Source: an uncultured Oscillospiraceae bacterium (GTDB lineage: Bacteria; Bacillota; Clostridia; Oscillospirales; Oscillospiraceae). Taken from it: a stretch of DNA of 64,000 nt. The stretch is from the NCBI GenBank assembly GCA_964504605.1, contig CAZDFB010000002.1, forward strand, positions 5,037-69,036, read 5' to 3'. A program made the position numbers and the translations under genes. The first letter of the stretch is position 1. Every line of letters starts with the position of its first letter. Below, piece after piece: positions 22,976 through 33,500 of the stretch. The notes beneath the pieces were generated by a model. That model was not told the DNA's origin and searched no databases. It worked only from the letters and a program-made list of their open reading frames with translations.

Positions 22976-23974
22976 ATGCAGAAATACAGCGATTGCCCCC
23001 AGATTTTGCGGGATTTTTTGACCTATCACGAGACAATTAAAGGACAGTCACCCCGGACCATATCGGAATATTACCTGGATATGCGGATGTTTCTGCGCTT
23101 TATAAAGCTCATGCGCAGCGATATGCCAATCCAAACAAGGCTGGACGACATTCCGATTAAGGATATTGATCTGGATTTCATCCGGTCAATAACCACATCG
23201 GATATTTTTGAATTTCTGTCCTATCTGGCAAATGACCGCACACCAAATCCCGATTCAGCGGCACCGGAATATGGCATCTCCCCTGCTGCCCGGGCCAGAA
23301 AGCTTTCGGCGCTGAAATCCTTCTATAAATATCTTACCATACGGACAAAACAATTGCAAGAAAATCCCGTAGCGGATCTGGAGTACCCAAAGCTCCGCAA
23401 GAGCCTGCCCAAATATTTGACCATGGAGCAATCTGCCGCACTTTTGAAGGCGGTAAACGGCCCAAATCAGACACGGGACTATGCAATTTTAATGCTTTTT
23501 CTAAATTGCGGCATCCGCCGCAGTGAGCTGGTTGGCCTGAATCTTACAGATGTATATGAAGACAGGATCCGTGTCGTAGGCAAAGGAAACAAAGAGCGGT
23601 TTGTCTATTTTGGTACACCCTGCCGCAAAGCGATTGATGCCTATCTGGTGGAGCGAAACGAGAAGGTTTTGTCCGACAACCGGGCTTTGTTTGGCTCCCG
23701 GGACGGGAACCGAATCAGCGTTACAGCGGTGCATCGGCTGGTAAAGAAGGCGCTTTTACAGGCAGGACTGGATTCAACCCAGTTTTCCGCCCACAAGTTG
23801 CGCCATACCGCCGCGACCATGATGCTTTCAGGCGGTGTCGATGTGAAGACGGTACAGGAGGTGCTGGGCCACGAGAATCTGAATACAACCCAGATTTACA
23901 CGCACATCGAGAACACGGAGTTGAAGATTGCCGCCGAGGCCAATCCCCTCTCCAAGCTTGATTTTTCCGAATAA
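22976..23974 (+). CDS. Tyrosine recombinase / phage-integrase-family protein (second Xer-like gene in the window)
   Basis: 332 aa. N-terminal SAM-like core-binding domain. Catalytic residues in ...NCGIRRSELVGL..., HKLRHTAATMML, GHENLNTTQIYTH. Confidence 0.85.
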   Translation: MQKYSDCPQILRDFLTYHETIKGQSPRTISEYYLDMRMFLRFIKLMRSDMPIQTRLDDIPIKDIDLDFIRSITTSDIFEFLSYLANDRTPNPDSAAPEYGISPAARARKLSALKSFYKYLTIRTKQLQENPVADLEYPKLRKSLPKYLTMEQSAALLKAVNGPNQTRDYAILMLFLNCGIRRSELVGLNLTDVYEDRIRVVGKGNKERFVYFGTPCRKAIDAYLVERNEKVLSDNRALFGSRDGNRISVTAVHRLVKKALLQAGLDSTQFSAHKLRHTAATMMLSGGVDVKTVQEVLGHENLNTTQIYTHIENTELKIAAEANPLSKLDFSE

Positions 23975-24027
23975 ATGTTGTATAATCAAAAAAGCAACCA
24001 AAAGTTGTCAGGTTTGGCGGTGATATA

Positions 24028-24468
24028 ATGTCGATTGGAGAGAGAATAACAGAGCTGCGCAAAGAACGGAATATTTCTCAGGGGCAGCTTGCTGAGGCAC
24101 TGGAGGTATCTAGGCAGGCAGTCAGTAAGTGGGAAAATGATCTTTCCAGTCCCGATTCCCTGCGGCTTATCAAACTGGCGGATCTTCTGGATACAGATGT
24201 TGAATATCTTACCACCGGACGAAAAAACCAGGCCATTCGCCCGCCGGTGGTGCTGGAAACGGTGAAAACGGTGGAAAAAATCGTTGAGAAGCCTGTTGTC
24301 CGGGTGGTCGAGAAAATCGTTCAGGTGGAAAAGCCTGTTACGCAGTATATCGAGAAGCCCGTCATTAAGAAGGTCGTTCGGGTGAAATACAGAAGAAATG
24401 TTCCGGAAATGGTTATTGTCGGAGGTATTTCTATGATTATCGGGTTCCTGATAGGACTGCTGCTGTGA
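24028..24468 (+). CDS. Membrane-anchored XRE-family HTH protein with an EKPV/EKIV repeat linker
   Basis: The HTH ITELRKERNISQGQLAEALEVSRQAVSKWEN is followed by the repeats VEKIVEKPVVRVVEKIVQVEKPV..IEKPVIKKVV and a C-terminal TM (MVIVGGISMIIGFLIGLLL). Confidence 0.7.
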   Translation: MSIGERITELRKERNISQGQLAEALEVSRQAVSKWENDLSSPDSLRLIKLADLLDTDVEYLTTGRKNQAIRPPVVLETVKTVEKIVEKPVVRVVEKIVQVEKPVTQYIEKPVIKKVVRVKYRRNVPEMVIVGGISMIIGFLIGLLL

Positions 24469-24476
24469 TATAATCT

Positions 24477-24512
24477 AACCCCGGTGAGGATTAATTTTTC
24501 CTCACCGGGGTT
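24477..24512. terminator. Bidirectional terminator
   Basis: AACCCCGGTGAGGA / TCCTCACCGGGGTT stem with T-runs on both strands. Confidence 0.65.
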
Positions 24513-24515
24513 TTA

Positions 24516-25550
24516 TCAGGACTTACCGGCTTTTTGTTCCAGCCGGAGGATTTCTCTGCGGACGATATCTGTGGTTTCACCGGTGGTGAAATGCCATTCC
24601 CTTTCAAATACCGCCAGCTCTTCCTTCAGCGCGTCAACGGCACAGTCGAACTGCCCAATCCGTTCATAGAACTGGGCCAGAGCCTCGAGAGGACCAACAT
24701 AGCGCGGTGCGGGCTGGACGTCCATTGCCTTTCGATAGTACCGCTCTGCCCTCTCATACTCCCTTGCCCTGGTCAAATAGTCTCCGATATTGTGGTAAAC
24801 GCACCATTCATCCGGGAAGGACCGCTCCATTTGCTTCCAGATTTCAAAGGCCTCCGATCTTCTGCCGTCCTGCCAGGCGATTTTACCTTGGTACAGAGGC
24901 ACACGGTAGCTGCTGTTGATGGCAGCGAATTTTACGCAATAGGCGGAGGCTTCTTCCAGACGATAGTCCGCAATGAGCTGGTCCATAACAGCGAGATAGG
25001 CAATCTGGCAGTTCGGGTGGTTGGACAGATACCCCTCGTAATAATCGATCAGGGCATAATGGCTGGAACCGTTCCAATCCGCAACAAATCCACCCATGGC
25101 AGATATCAGCTCGCCATGGGCATCCCGAAGACCGGAATCCCGCTGCAGGGCCTCCTTGGCGTATTCCGCAGCTCTGGATTGGTGCTCCCGGGCGATGTGG
25201 TTCTCCATATCTGCAAGAAGTTCGAAGGGGCGGCCGTTTTCAGGGTCCAGAGCAGCCTTTTGCAGTAAAAAGCTGCGGCTGGACTCCACTTCGGCATCGT
25301 CCAGATACCGAACATCCCAAAGCATATTCTGAATCCGCTCCATGCGGGTGTCGTCGGACAGGGCAAAAAGCTCGTCAATGGTCACGCCGAAAAATGCGGA
25401 AAGCTCCGGTAGCAGACTGATATCCGGTGTCGCAACACCGCGCTCCCATTTTCTGACGACCTGGGCGGTGAGACCGAAATGCTGCGCCAGGGTTTCCTGG
25501 GAAATACCCCGCCGAAGCCGCAATGATTTAATCTGGTTTCCGATTTCCAT
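24516..25550 (-). CDS. XRE-family HTH regulator with a C-terminal TPR-like repeat domain
   Basis: N-terminus IKSLRLRRGISQETLAQHFGLTAQVVRKWERG. The C-terminal ~270 aa is helical-repeat rich (..YYRKAMDVQPA..ALAQFYERIGQFD..). Confidence 0.75.
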   Translation of the reverse strand: MEIGNQIKSLRLRRGISQETLAQHFGLTAQVVRKWERGVATPDISLLPELSAFFGVTIDELFALSDDTRMERIQNMLWDVRYLDDAEVESSRSFLLQKAALDPENGRPFELLADMENHIAREHQSRAAEYAKEALQRDSGLRDAHGELISAMGGFVADWNGSSHYALIDYYEGYLSNHPNCQIAYLAVMDQLIADYRLEEASAYCVKFAAINSSYRVPLYQGKIAWQDGRRSEAFEIWKQMERSFPDEWCVYHNIGDYLTRAREYERAERYYRKAMDVQPAPRYVGPLEALAQFYERIGQFDCAVDALKEELAVFEREWHFTTGETTDIVRREILRLEQKAGKS

Positions 25551-27839: not shown

Positions 27840-27958
27840 GTCCACCACCTCATCCATTCTTATGCGGAACGCAGGCGGGGATGAACCCACCGGCTGATTG
27901 CGGCATAGTATGACCCGGAACGACAGTTCCCATCGAATGAAACAGGAGGAATGCAGCT

Positions 27959-28405
27959 TTGGAGCATAAACCGAATTATACCGAAGGAACGGAGGGCAAT
28001 CTGCCTGCACTGGCACCCCTTGCCAATCCCTATGTCCCATTCCAGATGGAAAACCCACCAAAGTATGAGCCCAGGAAAGCCATGGTGCGGGGCACCCTGT
28101 TTCCTGGGCTGGATCTTCCGTTTATGGGGATGGTAAACCAGAAGGAAGGGGCTGTGACACCCCTTGCTGAGCTTCAGGTCATGGCATTTGCGCTGCAGGA
28201 GCTGGCTCTGTATCTGGATACCCACCGGGAGGACGCTGAGACGCTGGAAATGTACCGGGAATACCAGAGACGCTACCGGGAGGCGGAGGAGGCTTATACA
28301 GAGGATTACGGCCCTCTGAATCATCTGACACCGGTGACGGGACCTTACGGCTGGCTGGACGATCCGTGGCCCTGGGAATACGGCCTGAACCGAAAGGAGG
28401 ACTGA
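27959..28405 (+). CDS. cotJA/cotJB: Fused CotJA-CotJB spore-coat-associated protein
   Basis: The N-terminal half LANPYVPFQ...AMVRGTLFPGLDLPF is the CotJA pattern. The C-terminal half ...FALQELALYLDTHRED...YGPL...DPWPWE is the CotJB pattern. TTG start 8 nt after AGGAGGA. Confidence 0.75.
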   Translation: MEHKPNYTEGTEGNLPALAPLANPYVPFQMENPPKYEPRKAMVRGTLFPGLDLPFMGMVNQKEGAVTPLAELQVMAFALQELALYLDTHREDAETLEMYREYQRRYREAEEAYTEDYGPLNHLTPVTGPYGWLDDPWPWEYGLNRKED

Positions 28406-28408
28406 GCC

Positions 28409-28831
28409 ATGTTTGTGTATGACAAGAAATTGCAGTACCCGGTAAAAATTGACAAACCCAATCCCCGTCTGGCTGCGCTCATCATATCCCAGTATGGCGG
28501 GCCTGATGGCGAGCTGGGAGCATCGCTGCGGTATCTGAGCCAGCGCTACGCCATGCCCTTTGATGAGCTGAAGGGATTGCTTACGGATATCGGTACCGAA
28601 GAGCTGGGGCATTTGGAGATGATCGGTGCGATTGTCCACCAGCTGACCCGGAATTTAAAGGATTCTCAGATTCAGGATTCCGCTTTTGCTCCTTATTTTG
28701 TGGATCATACGGCGGGCATTTACCCAACCGCCGCTTCCGGATTCCCTTGGAACGCTGCCAGCATGGCGGTTAAGGGGGATCCTATGGCGGATTTGACGGA
28801 GGATCTGGCGGCAGATGGTACGACTGCGTAA
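28409..28831 (+). pseudogene. cotJC: cotJC 5' segment (codons 1-135 authentic, then 5 element-derived codons and a stop). The gene is interrupted by the element.
   Basis: MFVYDKKLQYPVKIDKPNP...QYGGPDGELGASLRYL...GTEELGHLEM...KGDPMADLTEDLAA matches CotJC/Mn-catalase-family N-terminal two-thirds. Reading continues DGTTA* into foreign DNA. Confidence 0.85.
28811..28815 (+). other. Left junction core GCAGA (putative crossover GA at 28814-28815)
   Basis: Identical pentamer, in the same codon phase, to the one at 33306-33310. Confidence 0.7.
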
Positions 28832-28838
28832 GAACAAC
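28829..28838. repeat. Left terminal inverted repeat arm TAAGAACAAC
   Basis: Perfect reverse complement of 33286-33295. It lies 13 nt from the GA, the same distance as the right arm. Confidence 0.65.
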
Positions 28839-29069
28839 ACACAGTCTGAAATGATAGGACAAGCCATTTCTAAAACATAATACCGTACCTACAAGACGTT
28901 CAGAAATGAGCGTCTTTTTTTATACCCTCTGTTACGGAGTAGGAACGAAAAAGACCTTGCCACGCAAGGCTTTCCGGGCGTGTTTCTGACCGGGTAAGGG
29001 GTTTATACCTTATCCCTCAAAATCGCCGTTCTACTGCGTAACAAATCCGAAATAAAGGAGTGAACCACA

Positions 29070-29585
29070 ATGGCAGTTTTCCGAGTGGAACGAAACACAG
29101 GCTACACCGTAATGAGCAACCACCACCTACGCAACAAGGAGCTGTCCCTAAAGGCAAAGGGGCTGTTATCGCAAATGCTGTCCTTGCCGGAGGATTGGGA
29201 CTATACCCTTGCGGGGCTGTCCTACATCAACCGGGAAAGTATCGACGCTATCCGTACTGCGATATGGGAGCTTGAAAAAGCCGGATATATCACAAGGCGG
29301 CAGGGACGCGACGAGAAAGGCAAAATGACAGCGATTGAATACACCATTTACGAGCAGCCGCAACCGCCGCAGTTGGAAAAGCCGATATTGGAAAATCCAA
29401 CAGTGGGCAAACCGATATTGGAAAATCCGACAACGGATAATCCGACGTCGGAAAATCCAATGCAATTAAATAAAGATATACAAAGAACTGACTTACCAAA
29501 GAAAGAAAAATCAAATACGGATTTATCAAGTACCCATTCCATTCCTAGGAACGCTTACCGGCTATCTTATGTGTCAAGTATTTAG
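29070..29585 (+). CDS. Winged-helix/HTH DNA-binding protein of the kind common in clostridial integrative elements, probably C-terminally truncated
   Basis: MAVFRVERNTGYTVMSNHHLRNKELSLKAKGLLSQMLSLPEDWDYTLAGL...AIWELEKAGYI. RBS AAAGGAG upstream. The conserved-looking sequence gives way abruptly to AT-rich DNA after about residue 155. Confidence 0.65.
   Translation: MAVFRVERNTGYTVMSNHHLRNKELSLKAKGLLSQMLSLPEDWDYTLAGLSYINRESIDAIRTAIWELEKAGYITRRQGRDEKGKMTAIEYTIYEQPQPPQLEKPILENPTVGKPILENPTTDNPTSENPMQLNKDIQRTDLPKKEKSNTDLSSTHSIPRNAYRLSYVSSI
29376..29460 (+). repeat. In-frame tandem repeat (30-nt period) encoding (K)PILENPT units
   Basis: CCGATATTGGAAAATCC occurs at 29382-29398 and 29412-29428, with a third degenerate GGAAAATCC copy at 29450-29458. 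Confidence 0.6.
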
Positions 29586-29589
29586 CAGC

Positions 29590-29745
29590 ATGAGCGTGTT
29601 CGGAAAAGTTGAGTATCATTTTCCGCTGTTTGAAATGCTGGCATATTTTCTCTTTATGCTGGTCATTCAAATGTTCTTTTCCACGCAGACAATCCGGCAA
29701 ATTAAAAAACAATCCTTGATAGAACAAATACGAGAAATAGCATAA
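29590..29745 (+). CDS. Candidate 51-aa hydrophobic ORF, possibly the remnant 3' end of a deleted gene
   Basis: ATG 29590 to TAA 29743-29745, followed immediately by a strong terminator. No RBS. Below the ORF-track cutoff. Confidence 0.2.
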   Translation: MSVFGKVEYHFPLFEMLAYFLFMLVIQMFFSTQTIRQIKKQSLIEQIREIA

Positions 29746-29756
29746 TTCTTTCTTGA

Positions 29757-29797
29757 AAACCGGGGTGCAGACGATAGCCACCCCGGTTTTTCTTTTT
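29757..29797 (+). terminator. Rho-independent terminator inside the element
   Basis: AAAACCGGGGTG / CACCCCGGTTTT stem followed by TCTTTTT. Confidence 0.55.
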
Positions 29798-29979
29798 GAG
29801 ATTTTTTGAAATCTCCTTATCTTGTAACAATTCAGCATGATTATTTGTTGAAATTGAGAATGGCACGGAGATTTTTGTGACATTCATTCTTTATAATTAC
29901 AGCAGAATAGAAAAGCACTCTGCCGCACGACGGCAAAAGAAAAAAAGCCGTCGTACAGCAGCCCTATCAACACGCCTAT

Positions 29980-30024
29980 GAAACGGCGGCTTTGAGAAAA
30001 ATTCAGAGCCGCCGTTTCTTTTCG
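29980..30024 (+). terminator. Long stem-loop / terminator inside the element
   Basis: GAAACGGCGGCTTTGAG / TCAGAGCCGCCGTTTC stem followed by TTTTCG. Confidence 0.5.
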
Positions 30025-30225
30025 TCTATCCTAAACCAACGACGACCCAACACCGTGTAAAGTACACGGCGGCAAACAAGGAGGATTTGTCGCCGTGTCT
30101 ATTTTTGCATTGATACACAGCACCCATGATTTGCACCAGTTAAAAAAAGCATAGCCCCACCTCCGGGATATTCTGCTTTTGAATGTGAACTGTCAGTTCT
30201 TTATATTGCTTTTGTTATTTCCTAT

Positions 30226-30265
30226 GCGTCTGTCCGCGCCCTTTTGCGGACAGGCGCATTTTGTC
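30226..30265 (+). terminator. Stem-loop upstream of the sigma-like gene (terminator or attenuator candidate)
   Basis: GCGTCTGTCCGC / GCGGACAGGCGC (one mismatch) followed by ATTTTGTCGTTTC. Confidence 0.4.
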
Positions 30266-30389
30266 GTTTCGGAGAAATTTTTTCAAAAACTTTCTCTGAA
30301 TGTTTGGCATTTTCCCCGTGCCGTTTGTTGAGGGGTTACGAAAGGGGAAATCATCACCCGCTTTCGCGGTTGCGAAAGGAGGTGATACC

Positions 30390-30827
30390 ATGAATGAACC
30401 TAATCGTACCCAATGGCAAATCCGATGTGCTTTTAACGGGTTCTGCAAGCGGGCATTGAAGAATGAAGCTATCAATGCTCACGGGGAGATCAAAAGGCGG
30501 CAGCTACAAGAAGTTTCGTTTTCTGACCTTACTCCGCAAGAGGAAAATCAGCTTTACACCTACGACACTTACTTTGAACATGATGAAGCTGAAAAATCCT
30601 TTTGTATGGCAGGCAAGGAAATAACTGCAAAACTGCTTGCCGAAGCCCTGCACAGGTTGCCGGACGATAAACGGGAAGCCGTATTGCTGTATTACTTTTT
30701 CGATATGAATGACGCGGAGATTGCAAAGCTCCACGACATTCCGAGAAGCACAGTACAGTACCGACGGACAAGCTCATTTGAACTGTTAAAACGCTATTTG
30801 GAGGAACGCGCCTATGACTGCACATAA
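30390..30827 (+). CDS. Sigma-70 region-4-type small sigma-like factor (Tn916 Orf7-like)
   Basis: 145 aa. The C-terminus LPDDKREAVLLYYFFDMNDAEIAKLHDIPRSTVQYRRTSSFELLKRYL is a sigma r4 HTH. RBS AAAGGAGGTG upstream. Confidence 0.75.
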   Translation: MNEPNRTQWQIRCAFNGFCKRALKNEAINAHGEIKRRQLQEVSFSDLTPQEENQLYTYDTYFEHDEAEKSFCMAGKEITAKLLAEALHRLPDDKREAVLLYYFFDMNDAEIAKLHDIPRSTVQYRRTSSFELLKRYLEERAYDCT

Positions 30828-31065
30828 TGGTAACACCGAACAGGACGAGCGCGGCTTGTTACCGTACCCGGTAATCATAGCCGCAACAAAGGGCGACCCG
30901 GAAGCTATGAAGATTGTCGTACAACATTACGAAAGCTACATAGCGTCCCTGTCTATGAGAAAACTCCGCGACGAACGCGGCAACACCTACTACGGCATAG
31001 ACGAGGACATACGCGACCGCTTACGGTCAAAGCTCATGCGGGCTGTCCTTTCATTCAAGGTATAA
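30814..31065 (+). CDS. Conjugative-transposon-type helix-turn-helix protein (Tn916 Orf8-like, HTH_16-like)
   Basis: 83 aa. ...AATKGDPEAMKIVVQHYESYIASLSMRKL... It overlaps the sigma-like gene by 14 nt, the usual Orf7/Orf8 arrangement. Confidence 0.7.
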   Translation: MTAHNGNTEQDERGLLPYPVIIAATKGDPEAMKIVVQHYESYIASLSMRKLRDERGNTYYGIDEDIRDRLRSKLMRAVLSFKV

Positions 31066-31503
31066 GGTAGACCCGGCAGCGTCCCCCTTTCCGCTGCCTA
31101 TGGCTATCCTGCCTTTTCTGCTCCTTGACAAAGAAAGCGACGCAAGATAACGGCGGCGCAGCATAGGGCAAATCAGATACGTTCCTTTTGCGCCGAGCCA
31201 TGCGGTGGGTGCGCCATGACTTCCCGACCGGGAATGAGCGACCAACACCACGCCGGAAAACAAGTGTAGCGGCTTGTGGGCGACGACACGCAAAATACAT
31301 AATGATACTCCCTTACAGCCACAGTCCGAGCGTTCAAAGCGTCGCAGGCAATGGGTAGGGCTGCGCGAGAACCGCGCAGGGGTGGAACTCCCGTGAGATT
31401 GCAGCTAACAATCGTCTGATAAAAGCCCCTCTTTTTATGTTGTAATAGTGGACTTGCCACTATTCATATAGTGTATTAGCCATTTCTGAAAGGGGGCTAA
31501 ACA

Positions 31504-31653
31504 TTGGAAAAAACACAAAACCCTAAACCTATTTGTAAGAGTGTTTTCAAAAGCGGCGAAAACACGACTTCTAAAACACAATTCACAAAAACGTGGATTG
31601 AAATGATAAATAAAATTGAGAAAGGCAAAATTGTAAACTTTTCTAAAAAGTGA
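31504..31653 (+). CDS. Candidate 49-aa basic ORF just upstream of the recombinase (function unknown, speculative directionality factor)
   Basis: TTG start 7 nt after AAAGGGGG. The peptide is (M)EKTQNPKPICKSVFKSGENTTSKTQFTKTWIEMINKIEKGKIVNFSKK. Below the ORF-track cutoff. Confidence 0.25.
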   Translation: MEKTQNPKPICKSVFKSGENTTSKTQFTKTWIEMINKIEKGKIVNFSKK

Positions 31654-31655
31654 TG

Positions 31656-31700
31656 ACAAGCCGTTTCTGTTGTGATACGATCACGATAGAAATGGCTTGT
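31656..31700 (+). promoter_or_regulatory. Extended stem-loop immediately upstream of the recombinase RBS
   Basis: ACAAGCCGTTTCT / AGAAATGGCTTGT (13 bp including one G-U) encloses an inner GTGAT-ACG-ATCAC hairpin. It is followed by TCTATCTCTT and then GAAGGAG-N7-ATG. Confidence 0.45.
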
Positions 31701-31725
31701 TCTATCTCTTGAAGGAGATACGAAC

Positions 31726-33279
31726 ATGAAAGTAGCTATTTATTGCCGCTTATCCGAAGAAGATAGAAACAAGCAATTTGAAACCGACGACAGCAACAGC
31801 ATACAGAACCAAAAGGCTATGCTGCTGCAATACGCTGCGGAACAGGGGTGGGAACTTTACAACATATACAGCGACGACGACTACACGGGTTTAGATAGAC
31901 GACGCCCGGAATTTAACCGTCTGCTCAAAGACGCAGAAGCACACAAATTTGATATTATCCTCTGTAAAACACAATCCCGCTTCACCCGTGAATTGGAATT
32001 AGTTGAGAAGTACATACACGGGCTATTCCCTATTTGGGGTATTCGTTTCATCAGCATTGTTGACAACGCCGATACCGCCAACAAGGGCAACAAAAAGTCA
32101 CGGCAGATCAACGGACTTGTCAATGAATGGTATTTGGAGGATATGTCCGAGAATATCCGCAGCGTTCTGACCAACAGACGAGTGAATGGTTTTCATATCG
32201 GTGCATTTGCCCTTTATGGGTACAAGAAAGACCCCGACCAAAAGGGACACTTGATAATCGACGAAGAAGCCGCAGCCGTTGTCCGAGAAGTATTTACCCT
32301 ATTCGCAGAGGGTTACGGAAAAACTGCGATTGCCCGTATGCTCAATGACAGGGGCATACCTAATCCAACTGAATATAAGCGTCTGCATGGCTTACGATAT
32401 AAGCAGCCGAAAACCAAAAACAGCACTTTATGGAAATACTTTGCTATTTCCGATATGCTGATAAATGAAATCTATATTGGAAATATGGTTCAAGGCAAAT
32501 ACGGCAGCGTTTCCTATAAGACGAAGCAAAACAAACCCCGCCCTAAAAGTGAGTGGTACATTGTCGAGGGGACGCATGAGCCAATCATAGACCGTGAGTT
32601 ATGGGACAGAGTGCAGGCGTTGGTGGAACAGAAAGCGAAACCGTTTGACGTTGGTACAATCGGCTTGTTTGCACGAAAAGCCCGTTGTGCTAATTGCGGT
32701 TACACGATGCGTTCTTCCAAAAATCGCGGCAGACACTATCTGCAATGCTCAAACCGCCATGTGGCAAAAGACGCTTGTATCGGTTCTTTTATCTCTGTTG
32801 ATAAATTGGAGGGGCTTGTCATTGACGAGCTGAACCGTTTAGCAGCCGAGTATCTTGACAAGGACGAGTTAGAACAGAATATTGAGTTTTGCGATAACTT
32901 ACAGGCACAAAAATCCCGCCTACTCTCCGACATAGCAATCTACGAAAAAAAGGTTGCAGAGTATTCAAAGGGTATTCGGGAGCTTTACATGGATAAGGTC
33001 AAGGGCTTAATTTCTGAAAGTGATTATTTGGAAATGTCAAAGGATTTTACCACAGACCGCGACCGTTTAGAGCGCGTGATCGCTGACGGACAAAAGCAGT
33101 TATCCGAAATCGAAGAAAAAATTGCGGCGGGCGACAATCGCCGCGAACTGATTGAACAATATACCAACTTGGAACATCTAACCCGTGAAATTGTGGAAAC
33201 GCTGATTGATTATATATCTGTTGGCAAGCGTATTCCGGGAACAAAGGACGTTCCGATTGAAATTCACTGGAACTTTTAA
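31726..33279 (+). CDS. Large serine recombinase (TnpX/TndX-like, DUF4368-type C-terminus)
   Basis: 517 aa. Resolvase catalytic N-terminus MKVAIYCRLSEED, recombinase domain, Cys cluster CANCG...C...C, coiled coil and the tail ...LIDYISVG......IEIHWNF. The stop lies 7 nt before the right inverted repeat. Confidence 0.93.
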   Translation: MKVAIYCRLSEEDRNKQFETDDSNSIQNQKAMLLQYAAEQGWELYNIYSDDDYTGLDRRRPEFNRLLKDAEAHKFDIILCKTQSRFTRELELVEKYIHGLFPIWGIRFISIVDNADTANKGNKKSRQINGLVNEWYLEDMSENIRSVLTNRRVNGFHIGAFALYGYKKDPDQKGHLIIDEEAAAVVREVFTLFAEGYGKTAIARMLNDRGIPNPTEYKRLHGLRYKQPKTKNSTLWKYFAISDMLINEIYIGNMVQGKYGSVSYKTKQNKPRPKSEWYIVEGTHEPIIDRELWDRVQALVEQKAKPFDVGTIGLFARKARCANCGYTMRSSKNRGRHYLQCSNRHVAKDACIGSFISVDKLEGLVIDELNRLAAEYLDKDELEQNIEFCDNLQAQKSRLLSDIAIYEKKVAEYSKGIRELYMDKVKGLISESDYLEMSKDFTTDRDRLERVIADGQKQLSEIEEKIAAGDNRRELIEQYTNLEHLTREIVETLIDYISVGKRIPGTKDVPIEIHWNF

Positions 33280-33285
33280 TCAAAA

Positions 33286-33295
33286 GTTGTTCTTA
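33286..33295. repeat. Right terminal inverted repeat arm GTTGTTCTTA
   Basis: Reverse complement of 28829-28838, located 13 nt before the GA at 33309-33310. Confidence 0.65.
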
Positions 33296-33305
33296 TATGA
33301 TTGTA

Positions 33306-33500
33306 GCAGAGCAGAAGGCAAGGGTAACCTATGACAATATTCTCCGGCTTTCGGATGACCCGGACGTAAATGATGTGATCAAATTCCTCCGGGAGCGGGA
33401 AATCGTCCATTTCCAGCGCTTTGGCGAGGCCTGTCAGCTGCTCAGAGAGAAGCTGGATCGAAGAAATGTGTATTATATGAATCCTGCTTTCGATATGTAA
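33306..33500 (+). pseudogene. cotJC: cotJC 3' segment (about the last 63 codons). It becomes in frame with 28409-28815 after excision.
   Basis: (A)EQKARVTYDNILRLSDDPDVNDVIKFLREREIVHFQRFGEACQLL...YYMNPAFDM is the conserved CotJC C-terminus. It has no RBS or plausible start of its own. Confidence 0.85.

Follow-up and report, generated by a model that had tools for sequence, protein, structure and literature searches.

A large serine-recombinase element that splits the spore-coat gene cotJC is part of a widespread, horizontally mobile family in gut Clostridia

The interrupted cotJC gene and its element

In the 64-kb stretch of DNA analyzed here (the window, from contig CAZDFB010000002.1 of an uncultured Oscillospiraceae bacterium), the spore-coat gene cotJC lies in two pieces on either side of a 4.5-kb element with a large serine recombinase (LSR) gene at its edge (Table 1; L-numbers such as L001 and L095 label the related loci and contigs compared with it). 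The open reading frame (ORF) at 28409–28831 encodes 135 CotJC residues followed by five foreign codons (DGTTA) and a stop, the pentamer GCAGA occurs at both junctions (28811–28815 and 33306–33310), and joining 28409–28815 to 33311–33500 gives a 198-amino-acid (aa) protein with ...DLAAEQKAR... spanning the junction (...TEDLAAEQKARVTYDN...). The original prediction had described a cotJC gene split with GCAGA at both ends, and both features were found at the positions it gave. It had also proposed the joined ORF as a test against CotJC homologues, and the alignment ran end to end: more than 100 intact CotJC proteins, each exactly 198 aa, match the joined protein at 90 to 94% identity and 100% coverage. 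Pfam returned one unbroken Mn_catalase match (residues 1–183, E = 7e-56), alignment to the solved Mn catalases 6J42/4R42 and 1JKU was gapless over the junction, and a tblastn search with the joined protein placed residues 1–136 at 28409–28816 of the window. With this full-length Mn_catalase match inside a cotJA-cotJB-cotJC operon, the gene belongs to the CotJC family. Neither half contains a stop or a frameshift, and no second cotJC was found within the 64-kb window. The uninterrupted gene that was to be sought in related genomes is present in the same gene order (cwlD, cotJA/B, intact cotJC) in two relatives (L092 and L093), where the empty site reads GAT YTG GCT GCS GAG CAR AAR GCC and includes the GA. 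The structural reading of the locus, a seamless break with a large serine recombinase at the element's edge and a frame that excision restores in silico, proved correct.

The interrupted gene is a sporulation gene that follows cotJA/B next to cwlD. The host's wider sporulation complement, to which the prediction had pointed, was confirmed in that SpoIIIAB, AD, AE and AG are recognizable at 46.7–50.0 kb and cwlD and cotJA/B adjoin the split gene. The fusion of cotJA and cotJB likewise precedes the intact cotJC of L092 and L093. The −10 octamer of the promoter-like site upstream of it, CATAGTAT, is also that found before the spoIIIA operon (50710–50703, minus strand), and by the published consensus the site would be of sigma-K or sigma-E type (PMC3789822). 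Together with what is known of cotJ operons, this AC-N17-CATAGTAT site suggests that the interrupted cotJC is expressed in the mother cell.

Nothing specific points to an assembly artefact, in which a mobile element would have been joined chimerically into a cotJC contig, although the window probably comes from a metagenome-assembled genome (MAG). We consider this explanation vanishingly improbable because the same insertion, with the same attL and attR junctions, was assembled independently in other samples (metagenome contigs L001 and L007–L011) and dozens of genomes, from isolates as well as MAGs, have equivalent junctions.

The limits of the element were set by the empty-site comparison and the joined ORF, and its GC content is 42–47% versus 53–57% in the flanks. 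The LSR gene ends 27 bp before the right crossover, and the right att arm starts 6 bp past its stop codon; most of the 80 genome loci described below keep this arm immediately behind the stop. An equivalent of the left arm is kept at the left ends of L016, L024, L028, L035, L044, L061, L068 and L080 and within the intact attP of the phage contig L095, to whose attP-adjacent DNA the leftmost 121 bp of the element are 81% identical. The hairpin just inside the left end would stop read-through from the cotJ promoter. A 13-bp motif (ACAAGCCRTTTCT; the copy after the left att arm reads ACAAGCCATTTCT) has three matches in the window, all within the element, against 0.23 expected by chance, and looks like a putative operator; phage L095 has the same motif in the same arrangement, and L099, a conjugative transposon (ICE), has the same architecture with another repeat sequence. 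The pemK RNA motif recurs at the equivalent place in L012 (9574–9671), L013 (2672–2769), L017 (9576–9673), L029 (9574–9669) and L099 (9592–9653) with 44–64 bits. In many members it precedes the sigma-E-like promoter by about 50 nt, and so it appears to belong to the recombination module; no literature on its function was found.

Searches with Pfam and PHROG found no relaxase, conjugation, mobilization or phage structural, packaging or lysis genes in the window's 4.5 kb, so that this copy has the gene content of neither a conjugative element nor a prophage. PHROG replication-initiation matches to its HTH_36 protein cover only the first ~100–150 positions of 300- to 450-aa profiles, and the protein is probably a truncated remnant of the N-terminal part of a replication initiator. 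The pair of Sigma70_r4_2 and HTH_16 genes also precedes the recombinase in L099, and an HTH_16 homologue stands at the equivalent place in L099 and L008. The gene pair and the truncated initiator-like gene suggest that the window's copy is a deletion derivative of a Tn916/Tn5397-type element, and the 4.5-kb insert is small, probably through deletion, and belongs to a large gut-Clostridia family of site-specific integrative elements. Upstream of the sigma-like gene, L099 (8132–8371) carries the Rfam motif SQ2397, "cis-regulator of HTH transcription factor" (157 bits); at the matching place in the window (29887–30034) the match is partial (24.8 bits, below threshold), which is consistent with decay of a Tn916-like regulatory region.

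Decay might have gone further, leaving the window's copy a locked-in remnant of a Tn5397-like ICE or a phage, no longer able to excise efficiently, and cotJC a pseudogene in this species. The missing transfer and structural genes and the truncated initiator would fit, as would the weaker sigma-A −10 of the recombinase here (TACGAT versus TATAAT in the family), the absence of an intact cotJC allele of this species from the records and the identical insertion in several metagenome samples. However, the recombinase ORF is intact with all four domains and occurs in identical copies in several samples, neither att arm is damaged and both closely resemble the phage attP, and the small ORF, its promoter-like site and the cotJC halves are likewise undamaged, which makes such a remnant improbable.

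Table 1. Coordinates of the split cotJC gene, the integrated element and the upstream cotJ features in the window
Feature	Position	Strand	Remarks
Mother-cell-type promoter-like site, cotJ operon	27885–27911	+	AC-N17-CATAGTAT, ~47 nt upstream of cotJA/B
cotJA-cotJB fusion gene (148 aa)	27959–28405	+	Pfam CotJA E = 1.6e-13, CotJB E = 2e-22, single ORF
cotJC 5' part	28409–28815	+	Codons 1–135 plus GA of the Glu136 codon
Left GCAGA core (attL)	28811–28815		Inferred crossover GA at 28814–28815
Integrated element	28816–33310	+	4,495 bp, counted with one GA copy; all genes on + strand
P' arm of attP	28816–28838	+	TGGTACGACTGCG + TAAGAACAAC; inverted repeat with 33286–33295
13-bp motif, copy 1	28859–28871	+	ACAAGCCRTTTCT
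Terminator-like hairpin and T-run	28893–28923	+	Just inside the left end
HTH_36 protein, 171 aa	29070–29585	+	Pfam HTH_36 E = 1e-5
Sigma-70 region-4 protein (Tn916 Orf7-like regulator)	30300–30827	+	Pfam Sigma70_r4_2 E = 3e-10
HTH_16 protein, 83 aa	30814–31065	+	Pfam HTH_16 E = 1.4e-26
pemK RNA motif (Rfam RF02913)	31299–31396	+	60.3 bits versus gathering score 34.8
Sigma-E-type promoter-like site	31445–31472	+	ATA-N17-CATATAGT, before the small ORF
Conserved small ORF, 49 aa	31504–31653	+	...CKSVFKSGENTTSKxQFTKKWIELINxLEK...
20-bp-stem inverted repeat (motif copies 2 and 3)	31655–31701	+	Encloses sigma-A-like recombinase promoter, 31653–31681
13-bp motif, copies 2 and 3	31656–31668; 31688–31700	+; −	ACAAGCCRTTTCT; form the inverted repeat round the recombinase promoter
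Large serine recombinase, 517 aa	31726–33279	+	Pfam Resolvase, Recombinase, Zn_ribbon_recom, DUF4368
P arm of attP, GA and right core (attR)	33286–33310	+	GTTGTTCTTA + TATGATTGTAGCA; GA 33309–33310, GCAGA 33306–33310
cotJC 3' part	33311–33500	+	Third base of Glu136 codon through stop codon

Attachment sites, spread and insertion targets of the family

Joining the two ends of the element yields a 48-bp attP (10-bp arm, 13 bp, GA, 13 bp, inverted 10-bp arm). Because GA is the exact center of this reconstructed site, the crossover was placed there, at the first two bases of the Glu136 codon, and attB lies within the DNA encoding the conserved CotJC motif D-[LM]-A-A-E-Q-K-A-R. The predicted circle junction is GATTGTAGCAGATGGTACGACTGCG (joint GATTGTAGCAGA/TGGTACGACTGCG), and the predicted repaired junction is GGCGGCAGAGCAGAAGG (attB GGATCTGGCGGCAGA/GCAGAAGGCAAGG). 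An intact attP in L095, GTTGTTCTTATAAGATTGCAGCAGA/TGGTACGACCGTATAAGAACAAC, follows a recombinase 95% identical to the window's and independently confirms the circle junction predicted from the window. As in TndX/TnpX-type elements, GA stands at both ends (28814–28815 and 33309–33310), at the center of both attPs and in the empty sites. The central dinucleotide of a serine-integrase site sets its polarity, and in elements of opposite orientation the arm ends in TC rather than GA, as would be expected on that basis. In all 11 elements with both ends in hand (4.1–10.1 kb), joining at GA restores D[LM]AAEQKAR in frame, so that exact excision gives an intact ORF in silico.

The recombinase aligns over its full length with annotated TndX of Tn5397-like elements (30.6–30.8% identity, E = 1e-66), and its best PDB match is the catalytic domain of TnpX (2MHC), followed by TP901-1 integrase and SPbeta SprA; including its DUF4368 domain it is of TndX/TnpX type, at distant homology. 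TndX targets always have a central GA, with a preference for Fic-domain-encoding DNA (PMC4430133), and the TnpX target is 2 bp (PMC3158075). Together these data set the enzyme apart as a subfamily of its own within the TndX/TnpX branch, newly and tightly specific for AAEQKAR-coding DNA.

Homologues of the recombinase number 6,970 at E ≤ 1e-30, and 3,675 sequences fall in its 90%-identity cluster alone. When one genome per species was scanned, a relative of the recombinase turned up in at least 576 genomes; the counts given next are for the best 80 of these at least 576 loci, in which the recombinases are 84–96% identical to the window's. The cotJC fragment is broken at residue ~133–136 in 78 of the 80; a C-terminal cotJC fragment follows the recombinase on the same strand in 68, and in about nine the N-terminal fragment stands there instead on the opposite strand. 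Roughly 30 of 39 IMG/VR loci are likewise cotJC-broken. Taken alone, the 5-bp identity of GCAGA is weak evidence, yet chance is untenable given the same break point beside the same recombinase in those 78 of 80 other genomes. The best 80 loci come from Lachnospiraceae, Oscillospiraceae, Ruminococcaceae, Anaerotignum, Acutalibacteraceae and others, and cultured carriers include Lacrimispora indolis SR3 (L017), Parablautia intestinalis D8-82 (L028), Anaerotruncus colihominis JM4-15 (L037), Flintibacter muris DSM 110149 (L082), Pseudoflavonifractor sp. 524-17 and, with the element reversed, Anaerotignum lactatifermentans DSM 14214.

Some loci depart from this simple arrangement. No cotJC is adjacent at L022 (1565–1620), where an attP-like joint (...GCACCAGA/TGGTGCC...GCAAC) may mark an unintegrated or tandem element, or at L058 (6149–6200), which abuts unrelated GC-rich DNA and may be an off-target or alternative site. 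In the tandem at L028 (11577–14234), an attP-like junction lies between a complete element and a second one of 2.6 kb, after which cotJC resumes. The recombinase-side arm is duplicated ~75–80 bp apart with a terminator-like hairpin in between at L027, L053, L056, L062, L072 and L075; these may be mini-inserts or scars.

Across 12 elements compared, the recombinase is the sole clustered gene common to all (the clustering used a 50-aa cutoff, below which the small ORF falls). The module runs from the pemK-type RNA motif (in many members) through the sigma-E-type promoter-like site, the ~49-aa protein and a sigma-A-type promoter inside an inverted repeat to the TndX/TnpX-like LSR and the 48-bp attP. 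The variable cargo of the 4- to 10-kb cargo elements comprises Schlafen/AlbA_2-DeoR proteins, GmrSD nucleases, TrkH with a histidine kinase, a Na/Pi cotransporter, a MatE transporter and, beside the recombinase of the relative L061, a MobA/MobL relaxase. Larger carriers also occur. By its anaerobic ribonucleotide reductase, dUTPase, methyltransferase and endolysin genes, the 107-kb IMG/VR contig L095 is a phage, and the DNA it shares with the window is limited to the recombination module (31105–31223 and 31435–33310) and the 121 bp at the left end. Right beside its attP this phage has a toxin gene of ToxN type (L095:11969–12526, minus strand; type III toxin-antitoxin, abortive infection). L099, with AAA_10, lysozyme-like plus NlpC/P60 and TcpC genes followed by sigma70_r4, HTH_16, the small ORF and the recombinase, is a Tn916/Tn5397-type ICE inserted in cotJC. 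Among GenBank phages no recombinase was more than 42% identical, and the best plasmid match was a 72%-identical recombinase in an unannotated Subdoligranulum record.

Recombinase genes that are 98–99.6% identical in nucleotide sequence stand beside cotJC C-fragments of merely 60–77% identity, and over 606 pairs the identities of recombinase and C-fragment correlate at only 0.23. Near-identical recombinases beside diverged cotJC genes indicate that insertions are recent and independent and that the element moves between species. Vertical, domesticated inheritance was considered and ruled out, since divergence of recombinase and host gene is uncoupled. Synonymous differences between recombinase pairs far exceed non-synonymous ones (e.g., 96 versus 14), which places the recombinase under purifying selection. 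The choice first offered for this locus, either a domesticated element or an inactivating transposon, was therefore too narrow, for the element belongs to an actively spreading family. It is an addition to the known class of sporulation-gene-intervening serine-recombinase elements, and its family is widespread, horizontally mobile and specific to cotJC.

Other recombinases use the same gene. At a second site in cotJC, within the R-F-G-E/A codons, an unrelated element has GGTGAAGC common to both junctions; in L035 (11754–15433) it is 3.7 kb long with a MarR regulator, a flavodoxin-like gene and its own LSR, 23% identical to the window's, and cotJC of L035 is cut twice. The second site is also used in L034, L060, L061, L069, L070, L075 and L081, where the cotJC C-fragment ends at residue 176–178. 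A third site, in the first metal-ligand motif T-E/E-L-x-H-L-E, is seen at L099 (11857–13605 and beyond) with a 572-aa serine recombinase, 23% identical to the window's and lacking DUF4368, and then a CI-like repressor, so that the insert is prophage-like. N-fragment matches from residue 61–65 place this site in ~15 IMG/VR loci and in L042 and L088, and in L042 cotJC is in three pieces. All three insertion sites lie in the codons of the most conserved motifs of cotJC, namely the metal-ligand motifs E-E-L-x-H, A-A-E-Q-K and R-F-G-E-A, and the recombinases of the other lineages are ≤23% identical to the window's.

Two further observations concern the neighborhood of the split gene. A tyrosine integrase (332 aa) and two HTH/Xre-type regulator genes lie beside radA at ~22976–25550 (equivalent to L001:174–2748), a few kb upstream of cwlD, and may be a further integrated element; a tyrosine integrase also adjoins radA in L092 and L093. 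At the 3' end of cotJC, a near-consensus (11/12) sigma-70 promoter-like site, TTTACA-18-TATAAT (33501–33472, minus strand), is directed antisense into cotJC and the element's right-hand end; it also fits AC-N17-CATATAATA and may be due to chance.

The small ORF, its promoter and known systems

Conservation across the family extends over about 300 bp upstream of the recombinase. In 69 of 71 genome loci (63 distinct sequences) the small ORF is preserved at the protein level, with the core C-K-S-V-F-K-S-G-E-N-T-T-x-K-x-x-F-T-x-K-W-I-E-L-I-N-x-L-E-K and variable ends, and is found also in phage L095 and ICE L099; no relatives were found in Pfam, PHROG or PDB. Membership of the TnpW family was considered and dropped, as one variant alone (1 of 38 members) matched the Pfam family, at E = 0.3. 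The 49-aa protein is a candidate recombination directionality factor (RDF) or regulator.

The site in front of it, ATA-N17-CATAnnnT at 31445, is one of two strict matches in the 64 kb, against 0.45 expected. With a spacer of 16 to 18 nt allowed, 66 of 89 related loci have the pattern ahead of the small ORF, in 35 distinct sequences, compared to a mean of 1.2 (maximum 5) in shuffled controls and 0 on the opposite strand; of the 49 matches in a 69-locus subset, 48 have a 17-nt spacer. Spacer sequences are unrelated across at least six subfamilies and both boxes are retained; no sigma-A −35 could be read in the small-ORF promoters of the diverged subfamilies. The signature stated for sigma-E in C. 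difficile combines an ATA −35 and a CATA-type −10, whereas the sigma-K −35 is AC (PMC3789822). The −10 boxes match CATACAHT at 5–7 of 8 positions and CATAnnnT (sigma-E/K) at 8 of 8, versus 4–5 of 7 for sigma-G. The recombinase has its own promoter within the inverted repeat, with the family consensus TGACAA-17-TGgTATAAT. The pattern before the small ORF supports, without proving it, a putative timed excision of the kind known for skin and SPbeta. The likeness to these two elements drawn by the original prediction receives indirect support from the conserved small ORF behind a sigma-E-type promoter pattern, which parallels the C. difficile skin element (skinCd).

Gene-intervening elements are established in sigK, spsM, spoVFB, spoVR, gerE and yabG. 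Like skin in sigK (B. subtilis SpoIVCA; C. difficile CD1231 with the RDF CD1234), the cotJC element splits a mother-cell gene in frame and has an LSR gene at its edge beside the 3' gene fragment, and skin elements of different hosts share the recombinase alone (Galperin preprint), as do the cotJC elements here. In skinCd a sigma-A promoter between inverted repeats drives constitutive expression of the recombinase CD1231, and the 72-aa RDF CD1234, dependent on sigma-E and SpoIIID, limits excision to the mother cell (PMC5025042); a sigma-A recombinase with a sigma-E-driven small RDF is also the layout that we infer for the cotJC element. In contrast to skin, the target is a structural/enzymatic coat gene rather than a regulator, the recombinase falls in the TndX/TnpX-like branch with DUF4368, the family is now moving between bacterial families, also on complete phage, ICE and mobilizable elements, and regulated excision, established for skin, is putative. 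SPbeta (spsM, SprA/SprB), with the associated notion of exchangeable units of site-specific recombination, resembles the cotJC family in combining an active phage form (here L095) and reduced forms with the same integrase/att unit, and in pairing the integrase with a small adjacent protein, but similarity to SprA (YokA) is weak (E = 3e-10), the small ORF has no similarity to SprB or any known family, and the hosts here are anaerobic gut Clostridia. The gin element in gerE of B. cereus ATCC 10987 (PMC5595907) is likewise a small, non-prophage serine-recombinase module in a mother-cell gene; its target and recombinase lineage are different, its mid-sporulation excision was shown experimentally (PMC5595907) whereas the cotJC element is known from sequence, and the window's element adds Tn916-like regulator genes.

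On the side of the transposons, Tn5397, Tn4451 and Tn4453 share with the element GA at both ends and at the center of the joint as well as the use of conserved-motif DNA as a target, and relatives end a Tn916-type conjugation module behind the sigma-like and HTH_16 genes (L099) or adjoin a MobA/MobL relaxase (L061). They differ in that TndX is ~31% identical and uses Fic-domain DNA or loose GA sites instead of cotJC, and in their transfer genes, which are missing from the window's copy. We are aware of no report that Tn5397 or Tn4451 has a conserved small ORF upstream with a promoter pattern of sporulation type. As for cotJC itself, one preprint mentions it in passing as an integration locus, crediting Abe et al. 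2013 (bioRxiv 10.1101/2021.11.22.469490), and another, also in passing, that cotJC of Laceyella sacchari is interrupted by a skin-like element (bioRxiv 10.1101/2022.02.25.481979). These earlier examples lie outside the Subtilis clade or in Laceyella. No description of this recombinase family, its att sites, its small-ORF/promoter module or its spread in gut Clostridia was found in the searchable literature.

Timing of excision and significance

These observations can be combined in a model in which the recombinase would be produced from its own housekeeping-type promoter and would exchange strands between attP and attB at the central GA, the first two bases of the Glu136 codon, so that cotJC is split between its two metal-ligand halves. 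In the mother cell only, sigma-E RNA polymerase would transcribe the small protein, which would switch the recombinase to excision; attL × attR recombination would then remove the element as a circle and restore the 198-aa CotJC exactly. The mother cell, which is terminally differentiated, would thus have an unbroken gene by the time the cotJ operon is expressed, and the forespore chromosome would retain the element. Given the AC-N17-CATAGTAT site of cotJ, whose −10 is shared with spoIIIA, sigma-E-driven excision would occur before cotJC is needed, or at the same time. A portable cassette would thereby make the logic of skinCd and SPbeta available to phage, conjugative transposons and mobilizable or cargo elements. 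We lean slightly toward this explanation as a whole, a cotJC-specific family with exchange at GA and sigma-E-timed excision in the mother cell. Developmental excision of cotJC elements is in itself plausible, with the chances roughly even, and the sigma-E-driven switch in the mother cell is the least certain step.

Several results weigh against the model. Products of excision were not recovered: the exact joined CotJC protein is absent among 15 billion proteins, the repaired junction (as a 31-mer) had 0 matches in JGI metagenome contigs, and a degenerate attP 20-mer had 12 matches in metagenomes, which we attribute to chance because none had inverted-repeat arms, the recombinase or cotJC nearby (in IMG/VR, L095 was the one match). 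An intact cotJC allele of this species, sought through the exact CotJA/B protein, yielded short contigs only, which either carry the same insertion or end 165 bp into cotJC, and no record was found of the exact VanZ neighbor protein as another route to it. As the insertions are recent, the intact cotJC halves are no evidence of selection. The assignment of the small-ORF promoter is consensus-based, and its −35 also fits sigma-G (GHATR). Calibration of sigma-E on host promoters with a loose pattern gave four matches in the window, none at a recognizable sporulation gene, and the upstream regions of the host's spoIIIA and cotJ have the CATAGTAT −10 but no clean ATA −35. The pattern is missing in about a quarter of loci, the −10 of phage L095 is TATATAGT instead of CATATAGT, and the spacer of the largest subfamily doubles as a hairpin with covariation (T-A to C-G), so that part of the promoter conservation may serve another purpose. 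Judging from the titles of the papers on them, TndX and TnpX need no directionality factor, and the small protein may therefore have another role. Finally, the CotJC paralogues of C. difficile are dispensable for coat assembly (PMC11222575), which means that rescue of cotJC may be unnecessary.

In a rival explanation the element would be purely selfish, its recombinase aiming at the most conserved DNA of a common but dispensable gene, with cotJC as a safe harbour that stays knocked out, low unregulated excision sufficing for transfer by conjugation, mobilization or phage induction, and the small ORF and its promoter serving transfer or copy control. The high mobility of the family, visible in near-identical recombinases beside diverged cotJC fragments, fits this explanation, as does the carriage of the module by phage, ICE and relaxase-bearing or cargo elements. 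Targeting of the ubiquitous, conserved Fic domain by TndX has been read as the strategy of a promiscuous element (PMC4430133), paper titles indicate that TndX and TnpX alone carry out integration and excision, C. difficile mutants in cotJC paralogues had no significant coat defect (PMC11222575), and the excision junctions were not found in the protein and contig collections searched. However, an ATA-N17-CATAnnnT site with fixed spacing, a diverging spacer sequence and no sigma-A −35 is hard to explain without a sporulation sigma factor. The use of one sporulation gene by three unrelated recombinase lineages also suggests that expression in the mother cell only matters, and the same logic holds for sigK, spsM, gerE, spoVFB, spoVR and yabG. 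On this evidence a purely selfish safe harbour is possible but rather unlikely, and timed excision from cotJC remains the reading that we prefer.

A broader interpretation is that cotJC is a dedicated landing pad in spore-forming gut Clostridia, where the cassette of sigma-E-type promoter, ~49-aa factor, TndX-like recombinase and attP would let phages, conjugative transposons and mini-elements reside in a coat gene free of cost, each quitting only the disposable chromosome of the mother cell and persisting in the germ line of the spore. It gains weight from the independent convergence of three unrelated serine-recombinase lineages on this gene, and we advance it tentatively, at somewhat less than an even chance. 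If it is true, the developmental excision switch is a common, horizontally traded commodity and no domesticated rarity. Because several carriers are cultured isolates, the timing of excision is directly testable. If excision does not prove to be timed, the family would still be a clear case of recombinases targeting the DNA of conserved active-site motifs and a frequent cause of cotJC loss, which may alter the properties of spores in the gut. If it is timed, it would account for the many gut spore-formers in which annotation pipelines label cotJC a pseudogene, and would provide a natural recombinase with a well-defined 48-bp attP and attB, together with a small candidate directionality factor, for genetic work on organisms difficult to manipulate. 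Mother-cell timing would also mean that programmed rearrangement during sporulation, so far known from a handful of Bacillus and Clostridium cases, is carried out by a transferable cassette in hundreds of species of gut Clostridia.

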